A stretch of DNA of 64,000 nucleotides, taken from an uncultured Gemmatimonadaceae bacterium. Its GTDB lineage: Bacteria > Gemmatimonadota > Gemmatimonadetes > Longimicrobiales > RSA9. Every line of letters starts with the position of its first letter. Position 1 is the first letter of the stretch. The notes under the pieces are model-generated. The model was not told where the DNA came from. It made no database searches and saw only the letters and a list, made by a program, of their open reading frames with translations. This document shows positions 11,643 to 23,703 of this stretch, piece by piece. A program made the translations under genes and the position numbers. Location: positions 8,133-72,132 of the forward strand of contig CAYSGF010000027.1 in assembly GCA_964430275.1 (NCBI GenBank). Direction: 5' to 3'.

Positions 11643-12434
11643 TCAGGCGCGCGCCATGCGCGCCCGGCGCACGCCCGCCAGGTAATGCGCCCCGAGCAGG
11701 ATCAGCACGATCGCGAAGACGGCCCGCAGTGCTCCACCCGGCATCCCGAGCGCGAGCCGGCCGCCTGCCCAGGAGCCGGCGGCAATGCCGGGCACGAGGC
11801 CGAGCACGGCGTCGCGGCGAACGCTGCGGTGACGGAGGTGTGCGACGGTGCCGCTCGCGCCGGCGGGCACCATGGCGGCGAGCGACGTACCCTGTGCGAG
11901 GTGCTGTGTCATGCCGACGCCGATCACGAGCAGCGGCACCATGAGCGAGCCGCCGCCGACGCCGAGCAGCCCGGCAGCGGCGCCGACGATCAGACCGGTC
12001 GCGAGCAGAAACACGATCGTCCACGGGCCCTCGGGCGCGTGGAGCGCGAGCAGCTCGTCCTTGATCACGAGCAGGACCGCGGCGACGATCAGGAATGCAC
12101 CGAAGTAGCCGCGCAGGCGGAGTGCGGGGATGCGTCGCGAGTAACGCGCGGCGGTGTACGTCGAAGCGACGGAGATCGTTGCGAGCACGAGCGCGGTGCT
12201 CCAGTCGACGGCATCCTGGTTCGCATAGGTGAGTGCACCGGCGATCCCCGTCGCGACGACGCCGGCGAGGCTGGTCGCGTGCGCCTCGTGTTGGGTGAGG
12301 CGCGCCCAGCTGGTGAGCAGCGGAATCATCACGACGCCGCCGCCCAGCCCCACGAGCCCGCCGAACACGCCGGCGAGCGCACCGATGAAGAAAGACCGCG
12401 TCGTGCAGCGCCGCCATACCGGACCGTCGCTCAT
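11643..12434 (-). CDS. TauE/SafE family sulfite-exporter-like membrane protein
   Basis: Duplicated GGG(V/S)xMxPLL motifs in a multi-TM protein. ATGA overlap with the upstream copCD stop (12431-12434). Confidence 0.85.
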   Translation of the reverse strand: MSDGPVWRRCTTRSFFIGALAGVFGGLVGLGGGVVMIPLLTSWARLTQHEAHATSLAGVVATGIAGALTYANQDAVDWSTALVLATISVASTYTAARYSRRIPALRLRGYFGAFLIVAAVLLVIKDELLALHAPEGPWTIVFLLATGLIVGAAAGLLGVGGGSLMVPLLVIGVGMTQHLAQGTSLAAMVPAGASGTVAHLRHRSVRRDAVLGLVPGIAAGSWAGGRLALGMPGGALRAVFAIVLILLGAHYLAGVRRARMARA

Positions 12435-13714
12435 TCCGGCAGCGGCGTGAACGAGAGGGCGGCCGAGACGACGATGAGCCCGATGAACACCACGGTCTCG
12501 AGCCGCACCGAGGAGCGCAGGATCGCGCCGTCGCCATCCTTGGGCAGCGTCGCGATGATTCGGCGGTGGCGGTAGCCGAACGCGGCGAGCGCGATGAGCC
12601 CCGTCGCCTTCACGAGGACGACCCGCCCGTATCCCGTCTGCAGGAGAGCTGCCGGCGATCCGAGCAACACGAGCGCCTGCGACAGACCAGTCACTGCAAT
12701 GACGCCGAAGGACCAGAGTGCCGCGGTCGAAACGGCGCGCAGCTGCGGCAATCGAGCGGGGCCGCTACGCAGCATGCTCGACAGTGTGATGAGCCCGCCG
12801 AGCCAGACGGCGGCAGCGGCCATGTGCACCGCCCGCAGCGGGATCGCGAGAGCGGACGATACGGCCGCTGCGTGCCCGAGCGCACCGCCCGCCAGCACCG
12901 CGACGAACGCGAGCAGTGCCGCGGCACGCGCCGAGCGGGTCAGCACCCAGACGGCGAGGGCGGCCGCGGCCAGCACCATGCGGGCGAGCAGCGCCTTCCC
13001 CGTTGCGAGCTGCAGCGAAACCGACAGGTCCACGGTGCCCGCGACGTGCGTCGTCCACGTAACGAGCTCCGCGAAGACGGCGAACGGGGCCGCGAGCGCG
13101 AAGGCGGTGAGCAGCCGCTGCAGTGCGTCGGCGGCAGGTACCGAGCGGCTCGCGAACAGCAGACCACCGGCGAGCGCCAGCAGGAGTCCCGTACCCAGCG
13201 CGCGCAGGAGCGGCAGTATGGGCGCAAAATCCGTGGTCGATGGCGGCGGCGCTTCCACCACGAGGATCGGCGCAGCACGCGCGGAATCCGGGTCCGTCAT
13301 TGCCGGCGGCGACGGCACGGCTTCCGGCGACACGAGGAACGGGATTGCGCCACTCAGGACGTGGCCGTCCGCGGACGTGGTACGCCAGCGCAGCACGTGC
13401 GCGCCGGCACCGAGCGACGGCGCGGCTGCAACGATCACGCTGCCGTCGGCGCTGCCCGAGCGCGCGGCCAGTACCACGCTGTCGCGGTCGGGACGTACGA
13501 GCACGAGGCGAGTCGCGTCCACCATCACGCGAGCGCTGAACTCGAGACGTACGGTATCGAGCGGAAGGCGTAGCGTGTCGTCCTCCGCCGGCGTGGACGC
13601 ATCGAGCTGCGCGTGCAGAATGGTATGCGGAAGATTACTGCTGTCCCGTGCCGCGGAGAGCAGCACGAGACTCAGCGCCGGCAGCGCGAGCCAGGTACGT
13701 CGGTTCAGTGGCAT
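12431..13714 (-). CDS. CopC-CopD fusion copper resistance/transport protein (YcnJ-like)
   Basis: Signal peptide, then a CopC-like periplasmic domain (HAQLDASTPAEDDTL ... WRTTSADGH), then a multi-TM CopD-like domain. Confidence 0.8.
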   Translation of the reverse strand: MPLNRRTWLALPALSLVLLSAARDSSNLPHTILHAQLDASTPAEDDTLRLPLDTVRLEFSARVMVDATRLVLVRPDRDSVVLAARSGSADGSVIVAAAPSLGAGAHVLRWRTTSADGHVLSGAIPFLVSPEAVPSPPAMTDPDSARAAPILVVEAPPPSTTDFAPILPLLRALGTGLLLALAGGLLFASRSVPAADALQRLLTAFALAAPFAVFAELVTWTTHVAGTVDLSVSLQLATGKALLARMVLAAAALAVWVLTRSARAAALLAFVAVLAGGALGHAAAVSSALAIPLRAVHMAAAAVWLGGLITLSSMLRSGPARLPQLRAVSTAALWSFGVIAVTGLSQALVLLGSPAALLQTGYGRVVLVKATGLIALAAFGYRHRRIIATLPKDGDGAILRSSVRLETVVFIGLIVVSAALSFTPLPE

Positions 13715-14487: not shown

Positions 14488-15369
14488 TCAGTTCGGTGTT
14501 GCAGGCAGCTCGCGGGCGACGGTCAGGTGGAAGACGGGCTGTTGCCGCTCGAGCGTGACCATCAGAAGACCTTCGTTCTCCATGTCGCGCAGGAGCAGCC
14601 CGAGCACCTTTTTCAGCTCACGCGACTTCCGGGCGGCAACCCGCTCGAGCGCGAGCCGTGCGCTGCGCTGCGCGAACGCCGCGAGCTGCGGGTCGTCCGG
14701 CAGCTCGAGTGAGAGGCGCGCGGGCGCAGCGTACCCTTCATACGCGATGTCGAGCGTAGTGCCGAACTCGTGCGTGCTCGTGCCGACCGCGGCATTCACG
14801 TTCGACTCCCGCAGAGCGGCCTGCGTTTGCGGCGTGCGCAGTGCCGACGTGATCTCGAGCCGGTACGGCGGCAGCCCCATCGTGCCCAGTCGCTCCTGGA
14901 AGCGCGTGCCGATCTGCTCGAGCAGAGCGCGGGCAGCGGGTGTCACGACCGGAAGGGAGTACCCGAGGTCCCGAACGATCCACAGGTCCGTCGAGTCCTC
15001 GAGAACGAGCAGCCGCCCCGCGCCGATCAACTGCTGGAGCTGGGTAGAGTCGCGCACCTGAACCCCGAGCGCCCGCGCGCGTGCCAGCTGCCGCGCATTC
15101 GAGGAGCGTCGAAGCGACGCCTCCTCGCCCGGCGTCAGCAGCGGCACCGGCCGCAGCAGCTCCTCGATGGAGTCTGCCAGCGAAGTCGCAACCTCGATCG
15201 TTCGGTCGAGGGCGACGAGCCGACCTGCACCGGCGTCCGCGTCAGGGGAACCGCCGCTGCGCACTGCATCAGTGTCACTGTCCGGCGTGCACGCAGCCGT
15301 GGCGAGCAGGATGCACATGGCGGCCGGAAAAAAACGGGAGGGTGATATCGGCATGCTGAACCGCGCCAT
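14488..15369 (-). CDS. LAS/M15-type peptidase-like lipoprotein (DUF5715-like)
   Basis: Lipoprotein signal (CILLATAAC). ITSALRTPQTQ and STHEFGTTLD resemble the SxHxxGxAxD zinc site of VanY/M15 peptidases. The start may instead be the second Met (15354). Confidence 0.6.
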   Translation of the reverse strand: MARFSMPISPSRFFPAAMCILLATAACTPDSDTDAVRSGGSPDADAGAGRLVALDRTIEVATSLADSIEELLRPVPLLTPGEEASLRRSSNARQLARARALGVQVRDSTQLQQLIGAGRLLVLEDSTDLWIVRDLGYSLPVVTPAARALLEQIGTRFQERLGTMGLPPYRLEITSALRTPQTQAALRESNVNAAVGTSTHEFGTTLDIAYEGYAAPARLSLELPDDPQLAAFAQRSARLALERVAARKSRELKKVLGLLLRDMENEGLLMVTLERQQPVFHLTVARELPATPN

Positions 15370-15454: not shown

Positions 15455-17431
15455 CTACGGCGGGTTGCCCAGGCGGCGCACGCGAATGTTGCGGAACCAG
15501 ACCGGATTGCCGTGATCCTGCAGTCCCAGATGCCCGCTCATGGCCGTGCCATAGCCGGGCCATGCGGCGAACTTGCTCGCCGCCACCCGCTCGCGCCAGT
15601 CCTCGCCGCCCTGCTCGTACTCGAGCAGCTTTACGCCATTCAGCCAGTGCTCGACGTGCGCACCGTGCGCAAGGATGCGCGCTTCGTTCCACTCGCCGAC
15701 CGGATGCGTGACATCGCGTTCGGCAGCGTACAGGGCATAATTCGATCCTGCTGACGTGAGCGGACTCGCGCCGTCCGCGTGTGCGCCATTGTCGAGCACC
15801 TGCATCTCGGCACCGGTCTCGTACATGTAATCGGCATCCTCGCTGCCGCGGTAGAAGATGCCGCTGTTGCCGCCGGGCGAGACCTTCCACTCGAGCACCA
15901 GCTCGAAGTCGTCGAACTCCTCGCGTGTGACCAGGTCGCCGCCATCGCCGGCGGACGGCGCGAACGCGAGCACGTCGTCCTCGATCCGCCACCCGGCGGG
16001 CACGTCGTCACGACGATAGCCGCGCCACGCGTCGAGGTCGGTTCCGTCGAACAGCACGATCCAGGCAGTGTCCATCGTGGTGTCGTCCTGCTGCAGCCCG
16101 TCCGCCGCTGCGGCCTCACCTCCCGGTGCCGCATCGTTGGCGGGATCACCGCCAGCGCCCGTGCCGCCGTCGCAGCCGGCCAGGAGGATCGCGGCGAGTG
16201 CGGCAGTGACGGCAGTGGTGCGGCCGCGGGCGAGCCGCTCGCGGAACGCGAAGCCGAAGTAGATCATGACGAGTGCGGCGAATCCGGCGGGCAGCAGCCA
16301 GAACTGCTGCCACTGCCCGAGCGTGAGCGCGTCGGCGCCGTCCAGAAAGCGATTGTAGACCGCGCCCGCGATCTGCGCGCCGATCAGCATGCCGACGCCG
16401 TACGTCATGAGCACGAGGAATCCCTGTGCCTGGCCGCGCACGGCGGGCGTCGATTTCTTGTCCACGTAGATCTGTCCGGTGACGAAGAAGAAGTCGTAGC
16501 AGACGCCGTGCAGCAGGATGCCGGCGGCGATCAGGGAGAACGTGCCGGCCGGTGCGGCGAGTGCGAACAGCACGTAGCGCACGACCCACGCGGCCATGCC
16601 GGTGAGCAGCATCCACTTCACGCCGAGGCGGGCGAAGAAGAAGGGGATGAGCAGCATGAACGCGACCTCGGACATCTGTCCGAGCGTCTGCGTCGCCGCG
16701 ATGTTCTCGACGCCGGCTGCGCCGAGGAACAGCTGCGTGAAGTTGTAGTAGGCGGCGAGCGGAATCGAGATGAGCAGTGAGCTCAGGATGAAGACGTAGA
16801 AAGACGGGCTGCCGAGTGTGCTCAGCGCGTCGAGACCCACGATGCTGCGCAACGACACGCGCTCGCCCGCGGCCGGCGGCGGCGTATGCGGCAGCGTGAG
16901 GCTGTAGAACCCGAGCAGCAGGCTCGCCACCGCTGCCGTGTAGAGCGGCAGCGGCGATTCCTCGGCGATGCCGCCCGTGACGAACCCACCCAGCACGAAG
17001 CTGATCGCGAGACCCGCCACGATCCAGCCGATCGTGCCGAAGACGCGGATCAGCGGAAACTGCCGCTCCTGCTCCGTGATGTGATGGAACGCGAGCGAGG
17101 TGGACAGCCCGAGCGTCGGCATGTAGCACAGGTTGTAGAGCAGCAGCACGACGATGAACGCGACCGGATCGCCGATCATCGACGGCGCGAGCGCGAGCAG
17201 GCCGGCACCGAGCAGATGCAGCACGGCAAGTACCTTCTCGGTGGCGAAGTAGCGGTCCGCGACGAGCCCGAGAAAGAAGGGCGCGGCAATCGCCGCGATC
17301 GGATTCACCGTGAACGGCCAGTGCGTCAGCGTCTCCATCCCGCTGCTCGTCATGAACACGGCGATCGTCGTGTACCAGGCGCCCCAGATGAAGAACTGGA
17401 GGAACATCATCGCGCCGAGACGCACGGTCAT
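15455..17431 (-). CDS. NupG-family MFS permease fused to a C-terminal DUF1080 (3-keto-disaccharide hydrolase-like) domain
   Basis: Start moved to ATG 17431. The N-terminus MTVRLGAMMFLQFFIWGAWYTT closely parallels E. coli NupG. The C-terminal ~200 aa (WIVLFDGTDLDAWRGY ... GLQDHGNPVWFRNIRV) is a DUF1080 signature. An extra hydrophobic helix ending LLAGC links the two parts. Confidence 0.85.
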   Translation of the reverse strand: MTVRLGAMMFLQFFIWGAWYTTIAVFMTSSGMETLTHWPFTVNPIAAIAAPFFLGLVADRYFATEKVLAVLHLLGAGLLALAPSMIGDPVAFIVVLLLYNLCYMPTLGLSTSLAFHHITEQERQFPLIRVFGTIGWIVAGLAISFVLGGFVTGGIAEESPLPLYTAAVASLLLGFYSLTLPHTPPPAAGERVSLRSIVGLDALSTLGSPSFYVFILSSLLISIPLAAYYNFTQLFLGAAGVENIAATQTLGQMSEVAFMLLIPFFFARLGVKWMLLTGMAAWVVRYVLFALAAPAGTFSLIAAGILLHGVCYDFFFVTGQIYVDKKSTPAVRGQAQGFLVLMTYGVGMLIGAQIAGAVYNRFLDGADALTLGQWQQFWLLPAGFAALVMIYFGFAFRERLARGRTTAVTAALAAILLAGCDGGTGAGGDPANDAAPGGEAAAADGLQQDDTTMDTAWIVLFDGTDLDAWRGYRRDDVPAGWRIEDDVLAFAPSAGDGGDLVTREEFDDFELVLEWKVSPGGNSGIFYRGSEDADYMYETGAEMQVLDNGAHADGASPLTSAGSNYALYAAERDVTHPVGEWNEARILAHGAHVEHWLNGVKLLEYEQGGEDWRERVAASKFAAWPGYGTAMSGHLGLQDHGNPVWFRNIRVRRLGNPP

Positions 17432-17530
17432 GGGATCCGCTCTGTCGTGGAGAGTCCGCGCTGCGCCAGTGATGACCCGCACATCGTAGTGCGCCGGCGG
17501 GGCAGGGGCAACGCCGCCCCGCCTCCCGCC

Positions 17531-17596
17531 CGCTTCCGCTTCCGCCCGCTTCCGCTTCCCCGCTGCTTCCGCTTCCCCACCGCTTCCGCTTCCGCC
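17531..17596. repeat. imperfect tandem repeat (CGCTTCCGCTTCC core, 4 units) in a divergent intergenic region
   Basis: Read directly: cgcttccgcttccgcc / cgcttccgcttcccc / gctgcttccgcttcccca / ccgcttccgcttccgcc. It lies between the gene starts at 17431 (-) and 17664 (+). Confidence 0.8.
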
Positions 17597-17663
17597 TCCG
17601 TACGCTTGCGCCGCCCGCCATCCCCGCTCCACTATCCCCGGACCCCACAAGACATCGAGCGCG

Positions 17664-19361
17664 ATGATCCAGATCCAGCAGAACCGCCAGGATTACGACG
17701 TCTGCATTGTCGGCTCCGGTGCAGGAGGCGGCATGGCGGCGTACATGCTGACGAAGGCCGGTGCGCGTGTGGCGCTGCTCGAGGCGGGCCCGAAGTGGTA
17801 CGCCTCCGAAGACAGCGCGATGCTCACATGGGCGTACGAATCGCCGCGCCGCGGCGCATCCACACCGGACAAGCCGTTCGGCGAGTTCGACGGGTGCATT
17901 GGCGGCTGGCAGGTGGAGGGCGAGCCATACACGACGGCGCCCGATACCCGCTTCGACTGGTGGCGCGCGCGCATGCTCGGTGGCCGCACGAATCACTGGG
18001 GCCGCATCTCCCTGCGCTTCGGGCCTGACGATTTCCGCCGCGCGAGTATGGACGGCCTGGGCGACGACTGGCCGATCGGCTACGACGACGTCGCACCGTA
18101 CTATGACGCGGTCGACCGGCTGATCGGCATCTTCGGCAGCCGTGAGGGGCTGCCGAACGATCCGGACGGCATCTTCCAGCCGGCGCCGCGCCCGCGCTGC
18201 TACGAGCTGCTCATCAAGGATGCCTGCGACCGGCTCGGCGTCACGTGCATTCCGGCGCGGCTGTCGGTCCTCACGCAGCCGTTTGGCGACCGTGTGCCGT
18301 GCCACTACTGCGGCCAGTGCGGGCGCGGGTGCATGACGAACTCGAACTTTTCGAGTCCCGAAGTCCTGATCCGCCCCGCACTCGCGACCGGCCGTCTCAC
18401 GCTCCTGCTCGGCGCCATGGTCCGCGAGGTCGATGTGGATGCGCGCGGCCATGCGACCGGTGTGTCGTACATCGACAAGGCGAGCGGTGAGGAGCGCAGT
18501 GTACGTGCGCGGGTGGTGGTGCTCGCGGCAAGTGCCTGCGAAAGCGCGCGCCTGTTGCTCAACTCGAAGTCCTCGCTCTTCCCGGATGGACTCGCGAACG
18601 GCAGCGGCAAGGTGGGGAAATACCTGACGGACACGACCGGCGCGGGCGTATCCGGCTTCATCCCCAGCATGATGGAGCGGCCGCCGCACAACGAGGACGG
18701 CGCCGGCGGCGGCCACGTCTTCATGCCGTGGTGGCTCGACAACAGCACGCTCGATTTCCCGCGCGGCTACCACATCGAGGTCGGCGGCGGCTTCCACATG
18801 CCCGGCTACGGGTTCATGGGCGGTATCGAGCGCTATCCGTCCGGTGGCGGGTACGGCGCGCAGCTCAAGGAGGACTACCGCCGCTACTTCGGCGCGAGTG
18901 TCGGCTTCGCCGGCCGCGGTGAGATGGTGCCCAGCGAGGACTGCTACTGCGAGATCGATCCGCAGGTCGTCGACCGGTGGGGTATCCCGGTGCTTCGCTT
19001 TCACTGGAAGTGGAGCGACTACGAGATCGCGCAGGCGAAGCACATGCAGGACACCTTCCGCGCGATCATCGATGCGATGGGCGGCGAGGTGTTCTCGCCG
19101 ATGCCGCCGCGCGAGGAGCACTACGGCCTGATGAACGGCGGCTCGATCATCCACGAGCTCGGCTGCGTGCGCATGGGCAACGATTCTGACGCCTCGGTCG
19201 TGAACGCGTACTGCCGCGCCCACGAAGTGCCGAACCTGTTCGTCGCCGACGGCGGGCCGTTCGTCAGCCAGCCCGACAAGAACCCGACCTGGACGATTCT
19301 CGCGCTGTCCATGCGCACGAGCGAGCACATCGCGGACCTGATGAAGCAGGGGGCACTGTGA
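17664..19361 (+). CDS. GMC-family FAD-dependent oxidoreductase (gluconate 2-dehydrogenase flavoprotein-like)
   Basis: N-terminal DVCIVGSGAGGG FAD-binding motif. GMC-type C-terminus (HELGCVRMG). Confidence 0.9.
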   Translation: MIQIQQNRQDYDVCIVGSGAGGGMAAYMLTKAGARVALLEAGPKWYASEDSAMLTWAYESPRRGASTPDKPFGEFDGCIGGWQVEGEPYTTAPDTRFDWWRARMLGGRTNHWGRISLRFGPDDFRRASMDGLGDDWPIGYDDVAPYYDAVDRLIGIFGSREGLPNDPDGIFQPAPRPRCYELLIKDACDRLGVTCIPARLSVLTQPFGDRVPCHYCGQCGRGCMTNSNFSSPEVLIRPALATGRLTLLLGAMVREVDVDARGHATGVSYIDKASGEERSVRARVVVLAASACESARLLLNSKSSLFPDGLANGSGKVGKYLTDTTGAGVSGFIPSMMERPPHNEDGAGGGHVFMPWWLDNSTLDFPRGYHIEVGGGFHMPGYGFMGGIERYPSGGGYGAQLKEDYRRYFGASVGFAGRGEMVPSEDCYCEIDPQVVDRWGIPVLRFHWKWSDYEIAQAKHMQDTFRAIIDAMGGEVFSPMPPREEHYGLMNGGSIIHELGCVRMGNDSDASVVNAYCRAHEVPNLFVADGGPFVSQPDKNPTWTILALSMRTSEHIADLMKQGAL

Positions 19362-19957
19362 GTGCGCTGAACCGCCGCGAGATGCTGCGCGTCATGGCGG
19401 CCGTGCCGCTGGCGCAGGCGCTGGGCGTGCCGCTGCCGACACTCCAGGGCGCCGCCGCACACGCGCACCATGCGACGCAGCAGGCCGCACCCTTCGTCGC
19501 CGAATTCTTCACGCCCCACGAGCTGCGCACCGTCACCCTCCTCGGAGACCTGATCATCCCGCGCGACGAACGCTCCGGCAGCGCGAGTGATGCCGGTGTT
19601 CCGGCGTTCATCGATTTCATGATGATCGACCGGCCCGCGATGCAGGTGCCGATGCGCGGCGGAATCGCATGGCTCGACGGCGAGACGCACGACCGCTTCG
19701 GCGTCGCCTTCGTCGATGCGAGCGACACGCAGCAGGCAGCGATCCTGGACGACATCGCGTGGCCCGCGCGTGCGCCGGCAGCGCTGAGCCAGGGCGTCGC
19801 GTTCTTCAATCGCTTCCGCGACCTGGTCGCATCCGGCTTCTGGTCGTCGCGCATGGGCGTCGAGGACGTGCGCTTCATGGGCAACACCGTCGTGCCGCAG
19901 TGGCAGGGCTGCCCGGAGCCCGCATTGCGACACCTCGGCGTCGCGTACGACGACTGA
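19358..19957 (+). CDS. gluconate 2-dehydrogenase subunit 3 family protein, Tat signal
   Basis: GTG start overlaps the GMC stop (GTGA at 19358-19361). Twin-arginine-like signal (NRREMLRVMAAVPLAQALG). Confidence 0.8.
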   Translation: MSALNRREMLRVMAAVPLAQALGVPLPTLQGAAAHAHHATQQAAPFVAEFFTPHELRTVTLLGDLIIPRDERSGSASDAGVPAFIDFMMIDRPAMQVPMRGGIAWLDGETHDRFGVAFVDASDTQQAAILDDIAWPARAPAALSQGVAFFNRFRDLVASGFWSSRMGVEDVRFMGNTVVPQWQGCPEPALRHLGVAYDD

Positions 19958-19961
19958 CGCC

Positions 19962-21134
19962 ATGGCGGAATCGACGGGCGTGCTGCGCTACGGCATGATC
20001 GGCGGCGGGCCGGGCGCCTTCATCGGCGCCGTGCACCGGCGCGCGATCGAGTACGACGCACGTGCTCGCCTGGTCGCCGGCGCGTTTTCGTCCGATCCGG
20101 AACGCTCCCGCGCGCACGGCCGCACGCTCGGCCTCGACGACGCACGGGTGTATGGCGATTACGCGACCATGGCGGAGACAGAAGCGGCACGACCGGAAAG
20201 GGACCGGCTCGACTTCGTCGTCATCGTCACGCCGAACCACCTCCACCATGACGCCGCTGCCGCCTTCCTCGAGCGCGGGTTCCACGTCGTGTGCGACAAG
20301 CCGCTCACGACGACACTCCCCGACGCCGAAGCGCTCTGCCGGCTCGCAGTGAAGTACGACCGGTTGCTCGCGGTCACGTATGTATACTCCGGCTACCCGA
20401 TGGTTCGGCAGGCGCGTGCGCTCGTCGCGGCGGGCGCACTCGGCCGCATCCGTCGGGTGAGTGTGCAGTACACGCAGGGCTGGCTCGCGCAGCCGGTCGA
20501 GCGCACGGGGCACGGCGGCGCCGAATGGCGGACCGATCCCGCGCGCGCGGGTGCCGGTGCGCTCGGCGACATCGGTGTGCATGCCTTCCACCTGATGTCG
20601 TGGGTAAGCGGGCTGGCGCCGGAGCGCCTGTTCGCGGACGTCGCGACCCACGTCGAGGGCAGACGCGTCGATGATGACGCGTGCGTGCTGCTGGAGTATG
20701 CCGGCGGCGCGCGCGGCCTGCTCGTGTGCACGCAGGTGGCCGGCGGTGTCGAGAACGACGTCCGGCTGCGCATCTCGGGCGAGCAGGGTACACTCGACTG
20801 GTCGCATGCGGAGCCGGAGCGGCTGGTACTGCACGAGGCGAGCGGCGGACAGCGCGTGTATACACGCAGCGGTCCGGACCTCGCGCCTGCCGCGGTGCGC
20901 GCGGCACGCCTGCCGCCGGGACATCCGGAAGGCTTTCACGACGCGTTCGCCAGCCTGTATGCGGGCGTTCTGCGCGTCATCGGCGCGCACGCCGCCGGCA
21001 CGCCGCCGGACCGCCTCGACCTCGAGTTCCCCGACGGTGTGGCCGGCGCGGCAGGTGTGCACTTCATTCACACGGCGCTCCGCAGCAGCCGCGAGCGCGC
21101 GTGGGTGGATGCGACCTACACGCCGCCGTCCTGA
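19962..21134 (+). CDS. Gfo/Idh/MocA family oxidoreductase
   Basis: N-terminal Rossmann motif (LRYGMIGGGPGAFIG) and typical family body. Confidence 0.9.
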   Translation: MAESTGVLRYGMIGGGPGAFIGAVHRRAIEYDARARLVAGAFSSDPERSRAHGRTLGLDDARVYGDYATMAETEAARPERDRLDFVVIVTPNHLHHDAAAAFLERGFHVVCDKPLTTTLPDAEALCRLAVKYDRLLAVTYVYSGYPMVRQARALVAAGALGRIRRVSVQYTQGWLAQPVERTGHGGAEWRTDPARAGAGALGDIGVHAFHLMSWVSGLAPERLFADVATHVEGRRVDDDACVLLEYAGGARGLLVCTQVAGGVENDVRLRISGEQGTLDWSHAEPERLVLHEASGGQRVYTRSGPDLAPAAVRAARLPPGHPEGFHDAFASLYAGVLRVIGAHAAGTPPDRLDLEFPDGVAGAAGVHFIHTALRSSRERAWVDATYTPPS

Positions 21135-21203: not shown

Positions 21204-22208
21204 ATGATACGACCCGTCACGCTCTTCACGGGACAGTGGGCGGACATGCCGCTCGCGGAGCTCGCCGCGAAGGCACGCAGCTGGGGCTATGACGGTCTGG
21301 AGCTGGCGTGCTGGGGCGATCACTTCGATGTCCGCCGCGCACTCGATGACGACGACTACTGTGCCGAGCGCCGCGCACTCCTCGGCGACCATGGCCTGGA
21401 CGTCTGGGCGATCAGCAACCATCTGGTCGGGCAGGCCGTGTGCGACCCGATCGACGAGCGGCACCGCGCGATCCTGCCAGCGCACGTGTGGGGTGATGGT
21501 GATCCCGATGGCGTACGGGCGCGCGCGGCGGACGAGATGATCGCGACCGCCCGCGCGGCCGCACGCCTGGGCGTGCGGATCGTCAACGGCTTCACCGGCT
21601 CACCGATCTGGCACCTGCTCTACAGTTTTCCGCCTGTGCCGATGGCGACGATCGACACCGGGTTCGCCGACTTCGCGCGCCGGTGGCAACCGATTCTCGA
21701 CGTGTTCGGTGAGGTGGGCGTCGGCTTCGCACTCGAGGTGCATCCGACGGAGATCGCGTTCGACAGTGTCACTGCCGAGCGTACGCTCGCCGCCCTCGAC
21801 GGCCATCCGGCCTTCGGCTTCAACTACGACCCGAGCCACTTCGGCTATCAGGGCGTGGATTACATCGGCTTCATCGAAGCACTCGGCGCGCGCATCCGCC
21901 ACGTCCACATGAAGGACGCGTGGTGGGCGCATGCACCGCGCGCATCCGGCGTGTTCGGCGGCCACCTCGACTTCGGCGACGCGCGCCGTGCATGGGACTT
22001 CCGCTCACCCGGGCGCGGCCGCATCGACTTCGACCGTGTGCTCCGCGCACTCCACCGCATCGGCTACGAGGGACCGCTGTCCGTGGAATGGGAGGACGCC
22101 GGCATGGACCGCGAGCATGGCGCGCGCGAGGCGTGTGCGTTCGTGCGTCGCATGGACTTCACGCCGTCGGTTCAGGCCTTCGACGCCGCGTTCGCGCGTG
22201 ACGACTGA
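21204..22208 (+). CDS. sugar phosphate isomerase/epimerase (xylose-isomerase-like TIM barrel)
   Basis: AGGAG at 21195-21199. Family pattern ([13 protein letters not shown] ... [11 protein letters not shown] ... HVHMKD ... LSVEWED). Confidence 0.9.
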
Positions 22209-23703
22209 GCCGCGGCACGGCATCAGCTCGGTCGCGGAGGCAGTCGCGCCCGTCGCTGCGATGTTCGTGCTGTTCGTGTCCGGTGCACTCGCGTTCGGCG
22301 CCAGCCAGGAGCTGCTCGTCGCTGTGCTGCTCGCCGCGGCCGCCATCGCCGGTGCGAGCGCGGTGCGCCACGGTGCCTCGTGGAGCGAAATCCAGAGCGC
22401 GACGGGACGACGGCTCGCGGAAGTGCTCCCCGCCCTGCTGATCCTGCTGTCAATCGGCATCCTGATCGCGACGTGGGTGCTCGCCGGCACGATCCCGTTC
22501 CTCGTGTACTGGGGCGTTCGCCTGGTCAGCCCCGAGCTGCTCGTGCCGACCGCTTTCCTCGCCACGGCAGCGATGTCGCTGTTCACCGGCACGTCGTGGG
22601 GCTCGGCCGGGACGATCGGCATCGCGCTCGTGAGCACGGCAATCGCGCTCGGCGCACCAGTCGGCGCAACGGCCGGGGCCGTCGTGTCCGGCGCGTACTT
22701 CGGGGACAAGATCTCGCCGCTCTCCGACACGACGAACATCTGCGCGATCGCCGCCGACGTCTCCCTGTACCGGCACATCCGACACCTGCTCTACACGACC
22801 TTGCCTTCGTTCGTCGTCGCGCTGCTCGTGTACGTCATTGCCGCGCGCATCGGCGGAAGCGGTGCGTCGGGCGCGGTCGCCGCCGGCGCCGTCCTCACGG
22901 ACATCGCGCACGTGTACTCGCTGCATCCGGTGGTGCTGCTGCCGCTCGCAGTCGCGGTCTGGGGCATTGCGCGCCGCACGCCAGCGGCCCTCGCGATCCT
23001 GATGTCATCCGTTGTCGCTGCAGCGCTCGGCGTGCTGCTCCAGGGCTTTGGCGTACACAGCGCGATTCTCGCGGCCGTGACGGGGTTCCGGGTCGAGATG
23101 ATCACCCAGGCGGGCGTGGACGCGACAGGTCTGAGTGACGCGTTCATGCGACTCGCCGAGCGCGGCGGCCTCTATGGCATGGCGACGACCCTCATCGTGA
23201 TCCTCGCCGCGTTCCTGCTCGCCGGCGCCATGGAGGTGTCGGGAGCGCTCGACCTGATCATCGGACGCATGCTCGGCGCCGTCGATTCCGTGTTCGGCCT
23301 CATTGCTGCAACGATGGCGGCCGGCGCGACGACGGTCGCGGTCACGAGCCATGCTGGTGTGACAGCCCTCGTGGTCGGCGGGCTCTTCAAGGATGCGTAC
23401 GCGCAGCGCGGCCTGGCACCGGAGAACCTGTCACGCTCACTCGAGGATTCCGTCACGATTACGGAGCCGCTCATGCCGTGGTCCGTATCGGGCGTCTTCA
23501 TGGCCGGCACCCTCGGCGTGCCGACACTCACATACGCACCGTGGGCCGTCTTCTGCTATGCGGGTCCGCTCTTCTCGCTGCTGATTGCAGGACTCTACCG
23601 CCGAACCGGTTACGGCATTCGCCGCACACCGCCGCCGCCTGCGGAGGATCCCCGCGCGGCGACGACGGCTGCGGCTGCACCGGCTGTTCCTGTTTCGCGC
23701 TGA
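22198..23703 (+). CDS. NhaC-family Na+/H+ antiporter
   Basis: Multi-TM protein with NhaC-like motifs ([30 protein letters not shown]). Start uncertain: GTG 22198 completes the first TM helix; the alternative is ATG 22261. The track ORF start at 21931 lies inside the previous gene. Confidence 0.8.

Follow-up and report, generated by a model that had tools for sequence, protein, structure and literature searches.

Structure of the locus and the fused gene

The locus described here lies in a 64,000-nt stretch of DNA from an uncultured Gemmatimonadaceae bacterium (contig CAYSGF010000027.1; this whole stretch is hereafter called the window), and the gene in question joins a transporter of the major facilitator superfamily (MFS) to a DUF1080 domain. 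Its open reading frame (ORF) runs on the minus strand at 15455-17431, from an ATG at 17431 to a stop codon at 15455-15457, and encodes 658 amino acids (aa). A preliminary description of this DNA, made from the sequence alone, had already claimed one uninterrupted ORF, without stating that it lies on the minus strand, and both the ORF list and the translation bear this out. An alternative ORF of 731 aa could start from a TTG at 17650. Its extra N-terminus consists only of a translated CCGCTT tandem repeat, and the homologues all begin at the ATG position and not at the TTG.

Both halves of the protein gave full-length Pfam matches, so that an MFS region and a complete DUF1080 domain do lie in one protein, as first described. 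Nuc_H_symport (PF03825) matched residues 2-398 (positions 4-397 of the 400 of the hidden Markov model, HMM; E 6.7e-101; 338.6 bits vs a gathering cut-off of 25.9), and 3keto-disac_hyd/DUF1080 (PF06439) matched residues 457-652 (HMM 2-187 of 187; E 2e-53; 181.7 bits). The AlphaFold2 (AF2) model of the fused protein has a mean predicted local distance difference test score (pLDDT) of 88. Transmembrane (TM) helices were assigned from the AF2 secondary structure and from homology to solved structures of the nucleoside:H+ symporter (NHS) family. This replaced a Kyte-Doolittle sliding window over the fused protein, whose overlapping peaks could not be interpreted and which failed to show the short segment at the junction. 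The layout of the gene is as follows.

15455..17431, minus strand: fused gene, YegT/NupG-family MFS, lipoprotein-type signal segment, linker and DUF1080; 658 codons plus stop (translation, Pfam, orthologues)
16244..17431, minus strand: NHS-family MFS core, residues 1-396, 12 TM helices (Pfam PF03825, PDB matches, AF2, Foldseek)
16220..16243, minus strand: n-region RERLARGR, residues 397-404, positive, cytoplasmic side (3-4 K/R vs 1-2 D/E in 10 of 10 fused proteins)
16175..16219, minus strand: uncharged h-region TTAVTAALAAILLAG, residues 405-419 (the '13th helix'), ending in the lipobox residues L-A-G (length, AF2, PS51257 core)
16172..16174, minus strand: Cys420, the lipobox Cys and predicted Lgt acylation site, with the predicted LspA site just before it (invariant in 10 of 10, 0 parsimony steps)
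16064..16171, minus strand: disordered acidic Gly/Ala/Asp tether, residues 421-456 (pLDDT <50 for 419-454; 28% mean pairwise identity)
15476..16063, minus strand: DUF1080 beta-jelly-roll domain, residues 457-652 (Pfam PF06439, PDB matches, pLDDT >95, residue mapping)

Conservation of the fusion

Ten fused clusters of full length, 71-100% identical, were recovered from 5.8 billion protein clusters, namely one whose product is identical to the window protein (P0001) and nine fused orthologue clusters (P0002-P0010; 71-78%). They stem from NCBI, ENA, JGI and Logan assemblies. One of them is named Longimicrobiales, and relatives of the fused gene carry the names Longimicrobiales or Gemmatimonadota. 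After the fused clusters came hundreds of unfused MFS proteins of ~420 aa with 73-79% identity. Ten is a minimum, as a query with the C-terminal 264 aa returned no fused proteins, apparently owing to a word-index limit. All ten fused proteins retain the reading frame, the hydrophobic segment between the two halves and a lipobox ending in Gly-Cys. Furthermore, four fused loci from different samples have the same neighbourhood as the window, with divergent GMC, Gluconate_2-dh3, Gfo/Idh/MocA and AP_endonuc_2 genes.

An exhaustive profile-free scan of 1.84 billion representatives revealed no further MFS-DUF1080 fusion among the best 150 representatives, indicating that the architecture is genuine and confined to one narrow Gemmatimonadota clade. 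It is rare and was not described in the literature searched; both domains and the pathway discussed below were already known. Candidates for additional fusions were rejected. Four proteins matching in two stretches (P0123, P0128, P0136 and P0155), which might have been fusions in the reverse DUF1080-MFS order, were identified by Pfam as tandem DUF1080 proteins. In a Roseibacillus locus (L073), MFS and DUF1080 matches share one frame, but stop codons separate the two genes, and the downstream gene encodes a tandem DUF1080 protein with its own signal.

We considered whether two separate genes could have been merged by a frameshift introduced in sequencing or assembly, or by a deletion that recently disabled the locus, given that split MFS/DUF1080 pairs with a spacer of 2-4 nt exist in close relatives and that a single indel could mimic a fusion. 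However, the frame is the same in ten clusters from independent samples and assemblers, and both halves are strongly constrained, with 0.83 and 1.2 parsimony steps per column vs 4.1 in the junction. Moreover, what is missing at the junction relative to the split state is ~30 codons and not the single nucleotide of a slip. An artefact or a pseudogene is therefore extremely improbable, and the view that this is a true fusion and not two genes stands.

Origin of the fusion

In neighbour-joining (NJ) trees, calculated separately for the MFS half and for the DUF1080 half, the ten fused sequences group together in each case, with no other sequence among them. Lipoprotein signal peptides open all of the closest free-standing DUF1080 proteins (58-71% identity). 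For two relatives (P0285, with 69% identity, and P0292), the DUF1080 gene is located 2-4 nt downstream of an unfused MFS gene, with a divergent GMC/small-subunit pair alongside, and two further loci (L006 and L014) also show the split MFS-then-DUF1080 order. The comparison of fused genes with split pairs that the preliminary description had proposed thus yielded both kinds of arrangement, the split pairs of MFS and lipoprotein-DUF1080 genes being those of the relatives.

At the split junction, the MFS sequence ends with ...FHDR, a tail of ~20 aa and a stop codon, after which the DUF1080 gene opens with a start codon, an n-region and ...LLTAVAC. The fused junction reads ...FRERLARGR-TTAVTAALAAILLAGC and is short by ~30 codons relative to the split state. 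The fusion thus took out about 30 codons in frame: the cytoplasmic tail of the MFS protein, its stop codon, the start codon of the DUF1080 gene and a portion of the n-region. Since the nearest unfused relatives consist of an MFS gene followed, 2-4 nt further on, by a DUF1080 lipoprotein gene, the fusion is best reconstructed as having a single origin, by one in-frame deletion between adjacent genes. The hydrophobic segment had initially been likened to a lipoprotein signal, and this derivation agrees with the split relatives, in which exactly such a signal opens the separate downstream DUF1080 gene.

In Gemmatimonadales, the DUF1080 gene more often precedes the MFS gene (L001 and 13 other loci). 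An origin by read-through from that arrangement was rejected, because the order is wrong for the product, whereas the MFS-then-DUF1080 order (L085-L087, L006 and L014) fits. A third recurrent arrangement in Gemmatimonadales has a distant DUF1080 paralogue (31-34% identity) in convergent orientation just downstream of the MFS gene (L020-L022, L032, L033, L036, L037, L039, L042, L048, L050, L058, L065 and L070).

Orientation of the DUF1080 domain

Transporters of this MFS type are known to cross the membrane 12 times, so that the N- and C-termini are both cytoplasmic. The AF2 model of the MFS half has 12 long helices with a pLDDT of ~90, and TM1-12 are described in the YegT paper. In all ten fused proteins, the segment preceding the hydrophobic stretch contains three to four K/R residues, with a charge bias of +2 to +3. 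The linker (residues 421-456) contains no K/R and eight D/E in the window protein, and in all ten fused proteins its net charge lies between -3 and -8 and its length is kept at 29-41 residues. The cytoplasmic end of TM12 is followed by an extra segment that is preceded by positive charges and leads into an acidic linker, which suggests that the DUF1080 domain is exposed to the periplasm. It is thus predicted to face the same compartment as its free homologues. The proposal that an extra helix would place the domain there is accordingly supported by the charge bias, the 12-helix core and the export of the free homologues.

The extra helix itself needs qualification. The further hydrophobic segment, or 13th helix, of the preliminary description is present, but it is short: the uncharged stretch measures 15 residues in the window protein and 13-19 in the orthologues, and AF2 gives a helix of only 13 residues (405-417) with a low pLDDT (~50), residues 419-454 being disordered. 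The corresponding stretch in the signals of 63 free-standing DUF1080 lipoproteins has a median of 14 residues.

Some other NHS-family proteins also carry additional segments. Two MFS proteins of 606 and 625 aa (P0203 and P0210) have an insert of ~180-200 residues in the periplasmic TM11-TM12 loop, with a weak match to Laminin_G_3 (ConA-like), and two others (P0124 and P0132) have charged, coiled-coil-like inserts in the same loop. An unrelated NHS fusion (P0172) has a TM13 of 24 residues without lipobox, followed by a C-terminal domain of ~120 aa; the 13-19 residues of the fused proteins described here resemble free signals and not this long helix. The NHS family seems to have acquired external modules several times by different routes.

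Conservation of the lipobox at the junction

Near the junction, the only start codon in frame ahead of the hydrophobic stretch is the ATG of M389, 16 codons upstream and inside TM12; the next ones (M453 and V459) are both past Cys420. The statement that no ATG, GTG or TTG precedes the segment thus holds broadly, with the exception of M389. An internal translation start that would give a separate lipoprotein was discarded, its sole candidate codon being this ATG within TM12.

The PS51257 core {DERK}(6)-[LIVMFWSTAG](2)-[LIVMFYSTAGCQ]-[AGS]-C matches at the junction of all ten fused proteins. Mean pairwise identity among them is 83% for the MFS half and 78% for the DUF1080 half, vs 53% for the n/h region and 28% for the linker. 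Within this variable junction, G419 and C420 are invariant in 10 of 10 sequences and require 0 parsimony steps on the NJ tree of the fused proteins. The other 48 junction columns require a mean of 4.1 steps on that tree, none of them 0. The chance of both positions having remained unchanged is P about 3e-4 by a rough Poisson estimate. C420 is also the only Cys in the periplasmic part of the fused protein.

A sub-threshold match to NCBIfam NF058595 ('lipo-invert putative C-terminal anchoring domain'; 21 bits vs a cut-off of 37, E 3e-4) spans residues 374-438 (nt about 16118-16312) and so extends from TM12 across the junction into the first part of the linker. This match is probably compositional.

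The DUF1080 half

PDB matches of the DUF1080 half were 3osd/8tda (BT2157), 8v31 (AL2), 8rr2 and 9fbe, and Foldseek returned 8v31, 8tda, 8rr2 and 3osd with E about 1e-15 to 1e-16, for a jelly-roll/beta-sandwich modelled with pLDDT >95. Residues N522, E542, Q544, K620, Q638 and H640 are equivalent to N134, E164, Q166, K245, Q273 and H275 of BT2157 and are invariant in all ten fused proteins. The equivalent of BT2157 E103 falls in a gapped, Asp-rich loop where no residue is assignable. Enzymes of the DUF1080 family, the fold of which is ConA-like, are now described as 3-keto-glycoside 1,2-lyase/hydratases and not as hydrolases, so the 'hydrolase' label used at first has to be abandoned. BT2157 (also called BT2) and AL2 are both periplasmic lipoproteins. 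With these active-site residues conserved, the domain is predicted to be a competent lyase/hydratase of 3-keto-glycosides.

The MFS half and its putative substrate

The MFS half matched YegT (8zoj, E 1e-80) and NupG (7dl9, E 7e-55) end to end in PDB sequence searches, with 39% identity to YegT and about 30% to NupG. Foldseek gave 8zoj (E 3e-21, TM-score 0.86) and 7dla (TM-score 0.82). Residues R129, T133, E255 and D313, equivalent to R136, T140, E264 and D323 of NupG, are invariant in 10 of 10 fused proteins. The first three are the contacts to the sugar ring, and D313 occupies the proton-coupling Asp position of the GxxxD motif in TM10 (G309-x-x-x-D313). The base contacts of NupG (Q225, N228, Y318, F143 and F322) are not kept but are replaced by A226, Y229, H308, W136 and Y312, the pattern of YegT. 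The score against the nucleoside permease model TIGR00889 of NCBIfam (327.5 bits) lies below its cut-off of 446.1. YegT bound none of the standard nucleosides tested by isothermal titration calorimetry (ITC), and its ligand is not known. Of the preliminary assignment to a NupG nucleoside symporter, the part that stands is the complete 12-helix NHS-family transporter. The protein is closer to YegT, lacks the base contacts and falls below the TIGR00889 cut-off, and its YegT-like character makes nucleosides unlikely substrates.

The genomic context of the closest MFS homologues points elsewhere. Among 80 species-representative loci, a DUF1080 gene was present within 6 kb in 39 and directly adjacent in 28. 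From this linkage we infer that the MFS clade imports a product of 3-keto-glycoside cleavage, which would be the substrate of the fused transporter as well. Literature searches found no described MFS importer of 3-keto-sugars.

It could be argued that the protein is a genuine nucleoside importer after all, in which DUF1080 would serve as a non-catalytic, lectin-like domain capturing nucleosides or glycosylated nucleosides. Databases annotate it in this way, the match to Nuc_H_symport holds at the family level, the positions at which NupG contacts ribose (R136, T140 and E264) and its proton site (D323) are retained, and the fold of DUF1080 is ConA-like. However, this reading has to contend with the shortfall against TIGR00889 (327 bits vs 446), with the YegT-style replacement of the base contacts (A226, Y229 and H308) and with the ITC results for YegT. 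The catalytic and metal-binding residues of DUF1080 are, furthermore, intact, and the neighbouring genes all belong to sugar oxidation or 3-keto-sugar chemistry and none to nucleoside metabolism. We regard a nucleoside importer as very unlikely.

The sequence of the MFS half is well conserved across phyla. Identity between Gemmatimonadota and Rhodothermota reaches 73-76% (P0041, P0110, P0117, L005 and L008; Rhodothermus/Rhodothermaceae), and 65-72% is found with some Gammaproteobacteria, Verrucomicrobiota and Bacteroidota. Such values are unusually high for an MFS protein and suggest that the sequence is under strong constraint or that the cluster has spread horizontally.

Neighbouring genes and proposed pathway

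A divergent operon is located upstream of the fused gene, with the following features.

17432..17663, no strand: intergenic region separating the fused gene from the divergent GMC operon, with a CCGCTT hexamer tandem array at 17519-17600
17664..19361, plus strand: GMC-family flavin adenine dinucleotide (FAD) oxidoreductase, candidate catalytic subunit of a glycoside 3-dehydrogenase, without its own signal peptide (Pfam GMC_oxred_N/C)
19358..19957, plus strand: Gluconate_2-dh3-type small subunit with the twin-arginine motif NRREML (translation; tblastn; PF13618 on the orthologues L001, L002, L088 and L089)
19962..21134, plus strand: Gfo/Idh/MocA oxidoreductase without signal peptide, predicted cytoplasmic, candidate 3-keto-sugar reductase (Pfam; N-terminus MAESTGVLRYGMIGGG)
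21204..22208, plus strand: xylose-isomerase-like TIM barrel (AP_endonuc_2) without signal peptide, predicted cytoplasmic (Pfam; N-terminus)

The GMC neighbour was present in all fused and split relatives examined, and the adjacent GMC and small-subunit genes keep their synteny in the relatives. Its small subunit is likely a 'hitch-hiker' partner that carries the GMC subunit to the periplasm by twin-arginine translocation (Tat), and the two together would oxidise a glycoside, putatively at C3. In the TIM-barrel family AP_endonuc_2, the homologues BT1/AL1 are 3-keto-beta-glucoside lyases. Taken together, the genes of the divergent operon and the conserved active site of DUF1080 place the fused gene in a periplasmic route of 3-keto-glycoside catabolism. 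In a first step, the Tat-exported dehydrogenase would oxidise the glycoside at C3 in the periplasm. The DUF1080 domain would then eliminate the aglycone and hydrate the product to a 3-keto-sugar, and the MFS half would import this labile product by H+ coupling. Finally, the cytoplasmic Gfo/Idh/MocA and TIM-barrel enzymes would complete the conversion by reduction or isomerisation.

Proposed processing of the fused protein

We propose the following course of events for the fused protein. The deletion would have joined the gene of a YegT-like, H+-coupled MFS importer to the DUF1080 lipoprotein gene directly downstream. The product would insert into the membrane by its 12 MFS helices, the last of which ends on the cytoplasmic side. 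From there, what was once the signal peptide (n-region 397-404, h-region 405-419, LAG-C420) would cross from the inside to the outside, thereby exporting the linker and the DUF1080 domain. C420 would be modified with diacylglyceryl by Lgt and the precursor subsequently cut by LspA, leaving a transporter with the signal helix still attached, and the enzyme as a lipoprotein of its own that is anchored in the membrane.

The individual steps of this scheme differ in strength. The data show the architecture, how it is conserved and how it arose, as well as the signals of orientation, the intact active-site residues and the gene context, whereas the substrates, lipidation and cleavage are predicted. 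An invariant Gly-Cys in a junction otherwise saturated with substitutions, next to a stretch that has kept the length of a signal peptide, makes lipidation of the Cys by Lgt the most economical reading, and we infer that C420 is probably still lipidated. If so, cleavage by LspA into two mature proteins would be expected, and overall we give cleavage about the same chance of occurring as of failing. That the protein is a membrane 'polyprotein' in the full sense, with an internal signal recognised by both Lgt and LspA and a single product giving rise to an MFS importer with a 13th segment and an N-acylated lipoprotein lyase/hydratase, is a tentative reading, falling slightly short of an even chance. 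For the explanation as a whole, including the deletion origin, a periplasmic DUF1080 domain, the 3-keto-glycoside pathway and a working lipoprotein signal, the balance appears to be even.

The same data bear on two earlier suggestions. The segment had been called a fossil lipoprotein signal. This is doubtful, as Gly-Cys alone is invariant where every other column has changed (mean of 4.1 steps) and the signal-peptide length is kept. It had also been suggested that the fusion physically couples the enzyme to the importer. The fusion is real, but the coupling is not guaranteed to be permanent, as the signal may still be lipidated and even cleaved.

The alternative is indeed a permanent tether, in which the former signal peptide would act as an uncleaved signal anchor, that is, a 13th TM helix, holding DUF1080 on a flexible linker of ~36 residues. 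The labile 3-keto-sugar would then arise right where the transporter takes it up, with enzyme and importer in a 1:1 ratio. This would be useful, as 3-keto-glucose is unstable and isomerises, which would make channelling worthwhile. A tether is also consistent with the continuous ORF without a usable internal start codon, with the retention of the fusion across a clade with about 20-27% divergence and with the maintained linker length of 29-41 residues. OpuABC, in which a signal-anchor sequence joins a membrane domain to an external domain, provides a precedent, and other NHS-family proteins, mentioned above, carry external domains via a long TM13 (P0172) or inside the TM11-12 loop (P0203 and P0210). 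However, a tether leaves unexplained why Gly-Cys alone is invariant in a change-saturated junction, and why the hydrophobic stretch has stayed at 13-19 residues and has not been lengthened to a normal TM span. We consider a permanent tether a serious possibility, itself somewhat below an even chance and nearly as likely as a working lipobox.

Several observations weigh against the explanation that we propose. The PS51257 core also matches within TM3 of six of the fused orthologues (P0003-P0008, residues ~69-81, 'LAVLHLLGAAC'). It does so neither in the window protein nor in any of 110 unfused homologues, and the TM3 match presumably arose by chance. Since the pattern can match by chance, it proves nothing by itself, and the weight lies on the conservation argument. 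The lipobox Cys is at residue 420, after 12 TM helices, whereas an N-terminal signal has its Cys in the first ~15-35 residues, and literature searches yielded no precedent for an internal lipobox or type II processing after 12 TM helices. A released domain would perhaps be sorted to the outer membrane, in which case there would be no benefit of co-localisation and the fusion would be neutral and not adaptive. As for the enzyme, the equivalent of Tyr190 of BT2157 is a Tyr (Y565) in the window protein and P0002 but a Phe in eight of the ten fused proteins. As for the transporter, YegT itself has no known ligand.

Relation to known systems

BT2157 of Bacteroides thetaiotaomicron and AL2 of Alistipes, DUF1080 proteins with 3-keto-alpha-glucoside 1,2-lyase / 3-keto-2-hydroxyglucal hydratase function and only ~36-40% identity to the window domain, belong to the same full-length Pfam family and have the same jelly-roll fold. 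They also resemble it in having a lipoprotein-type export signal, a periplasmic location and a gene beside those of sugar 3-oxidising enzymes, which in the window are candidates. Their signal is N-terminal, whereas that of the window protein is internal and follows a 12-TM transporter. Their partner is a Tat-exported Gfo/Idh/MocA protein, whereas the candidate partner in the window is a GMC flavoprotein with a Tat small subunit, the Gfo and TIM-barrel proteins of the window having no signals. With YegT and NupG of E. coli, the window protein shares the 12-TM fold, the GxxxD proton site and the R/T/E contacts to the sugar ring. In contrast to them, it has an additional signal-like helix and an external part of 240 residues, and its context is sugar oxidation and not nucleoside salvage.

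The overall design is reminiscent of OpuABC of Lactococcus lactis, in which a membrane domain is likewise followed by one additional segment of export-signal origin and then by an external domain that other organisms make as an independent protein. OpuABC, however, is an ABC transporter fused to a binding protein, whereas here the fused domain is a member of an enzyme family, with its active site preserved. The anchor of OpuABC is a true signal anchor that stays uncleaved and is not known to have a conserved lipobox. A case of cleavage is the cytochrome b-c1 precursor FbcH of Bradyrhizobium japonicum, reportedly a polytopic membrane protein with a cytoplasmic end, to which an internal signal peptide and then a periplasmic domain are joined in one ORF. 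Type I signal peptidase cuts this precursor into two proteins, whereas the junction in the window would be a type II (lipoprotein) signal. To our knowledge, an internal type II signal following a polytopic protein has not been described.

The closest parallel in gene content is found in Caulobacter, where the periplasmic, GMC-type lactose 3-dehydrogenase LacABC acts with the DUF1080 protein CCNA_01705 (PMC9007349). As in the window, genes of a GMC-type dehydrogenase and its small subunit adjoin that of a DUF1080 protein with an export signal, and oxidation followed by cleavage has been proposed (Price et al. 2022, PMC9007349). For Caulobacter, the fate of the 3-keto-sugar and its transporter were stated to be unknown and no MFS protein was linked to the system (PMC9007349), whereas in the window a candidate importer is fused to DUF1080 itself.

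Significance of the fusion

As a 'Rosetta-stone' protein, and together with the adjacency seen in 28 of the 80 loci, the fusion links an orphan YegT-like branch of the NHS family to DUF1080 enzymes and to oxidative glycoside breakdown. It makes YegT-like transporters candidates for the import step, so far missing, of 3-keto-sugars or related products in the oxidative, non-Koshland breakdown of glycosides. It would also correct the labels 'nucleoside transporter' and 'MFS transporter' that are in use across Gemmatimonadota, Rhodothermota, Bacteroidota, Planctomycetota and others. The conserved internal lipobox constitutes a natural test of whether Lgt and LspA act on a signal that lacks a free N-terminus and is attached to a 12-TM protein. 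If the product is indeed a polyprotein, it would provide the first natural example of a type II signal peptidase acting on an internal site that follows a polytopic protein, and would imply that such gene fusions can be functionally silent. If the enzyme is merely tethered, the protein would be a rare MFS importer bearing its own periplasmic catabolic enzyme.

Other features of the locus

The CCGCTT array in the divergent intergenic region comprises about 12 copies, and a 14-mer from it occurs 5 times vs 0.03 expected. Its translation accounts for the spurious N-terminal extension, rich in Gly/Ser/Glu/Ala, of the ORF of 731 aa that starts at the TTG, and no such array was found in the equivalent intergenic regions of two fused relatives (L002 and L088). 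No match to a sigma-70-like promoter was found in 17432..17663, and promoter/terminator and Rfam scans around the fused gene were empty. On the other side, 85 nt downstream of the fused gene, a DUF5715 gene encoding 293 aa (window 14488-15369, minus strand) has a lipoprotein-like N-terminus (...AAMCILLATAAC) and may be co-transcribed with it. A gene of similar size lies downstream of the fused gene in L002 and L003. The TIM-barrel gene is followed by a gene of the NhaC-type Na+/H+ antiporter family (21931-23703, plus strand), likewise present in the fused relative L088. As annotated, this ORF overlaps the end of the TIM-barrel gene, and its true start is probably further downstream. Finally, a fused CopC-CopD copper-resistance gene is located at 12431-13714 on the minus strand.

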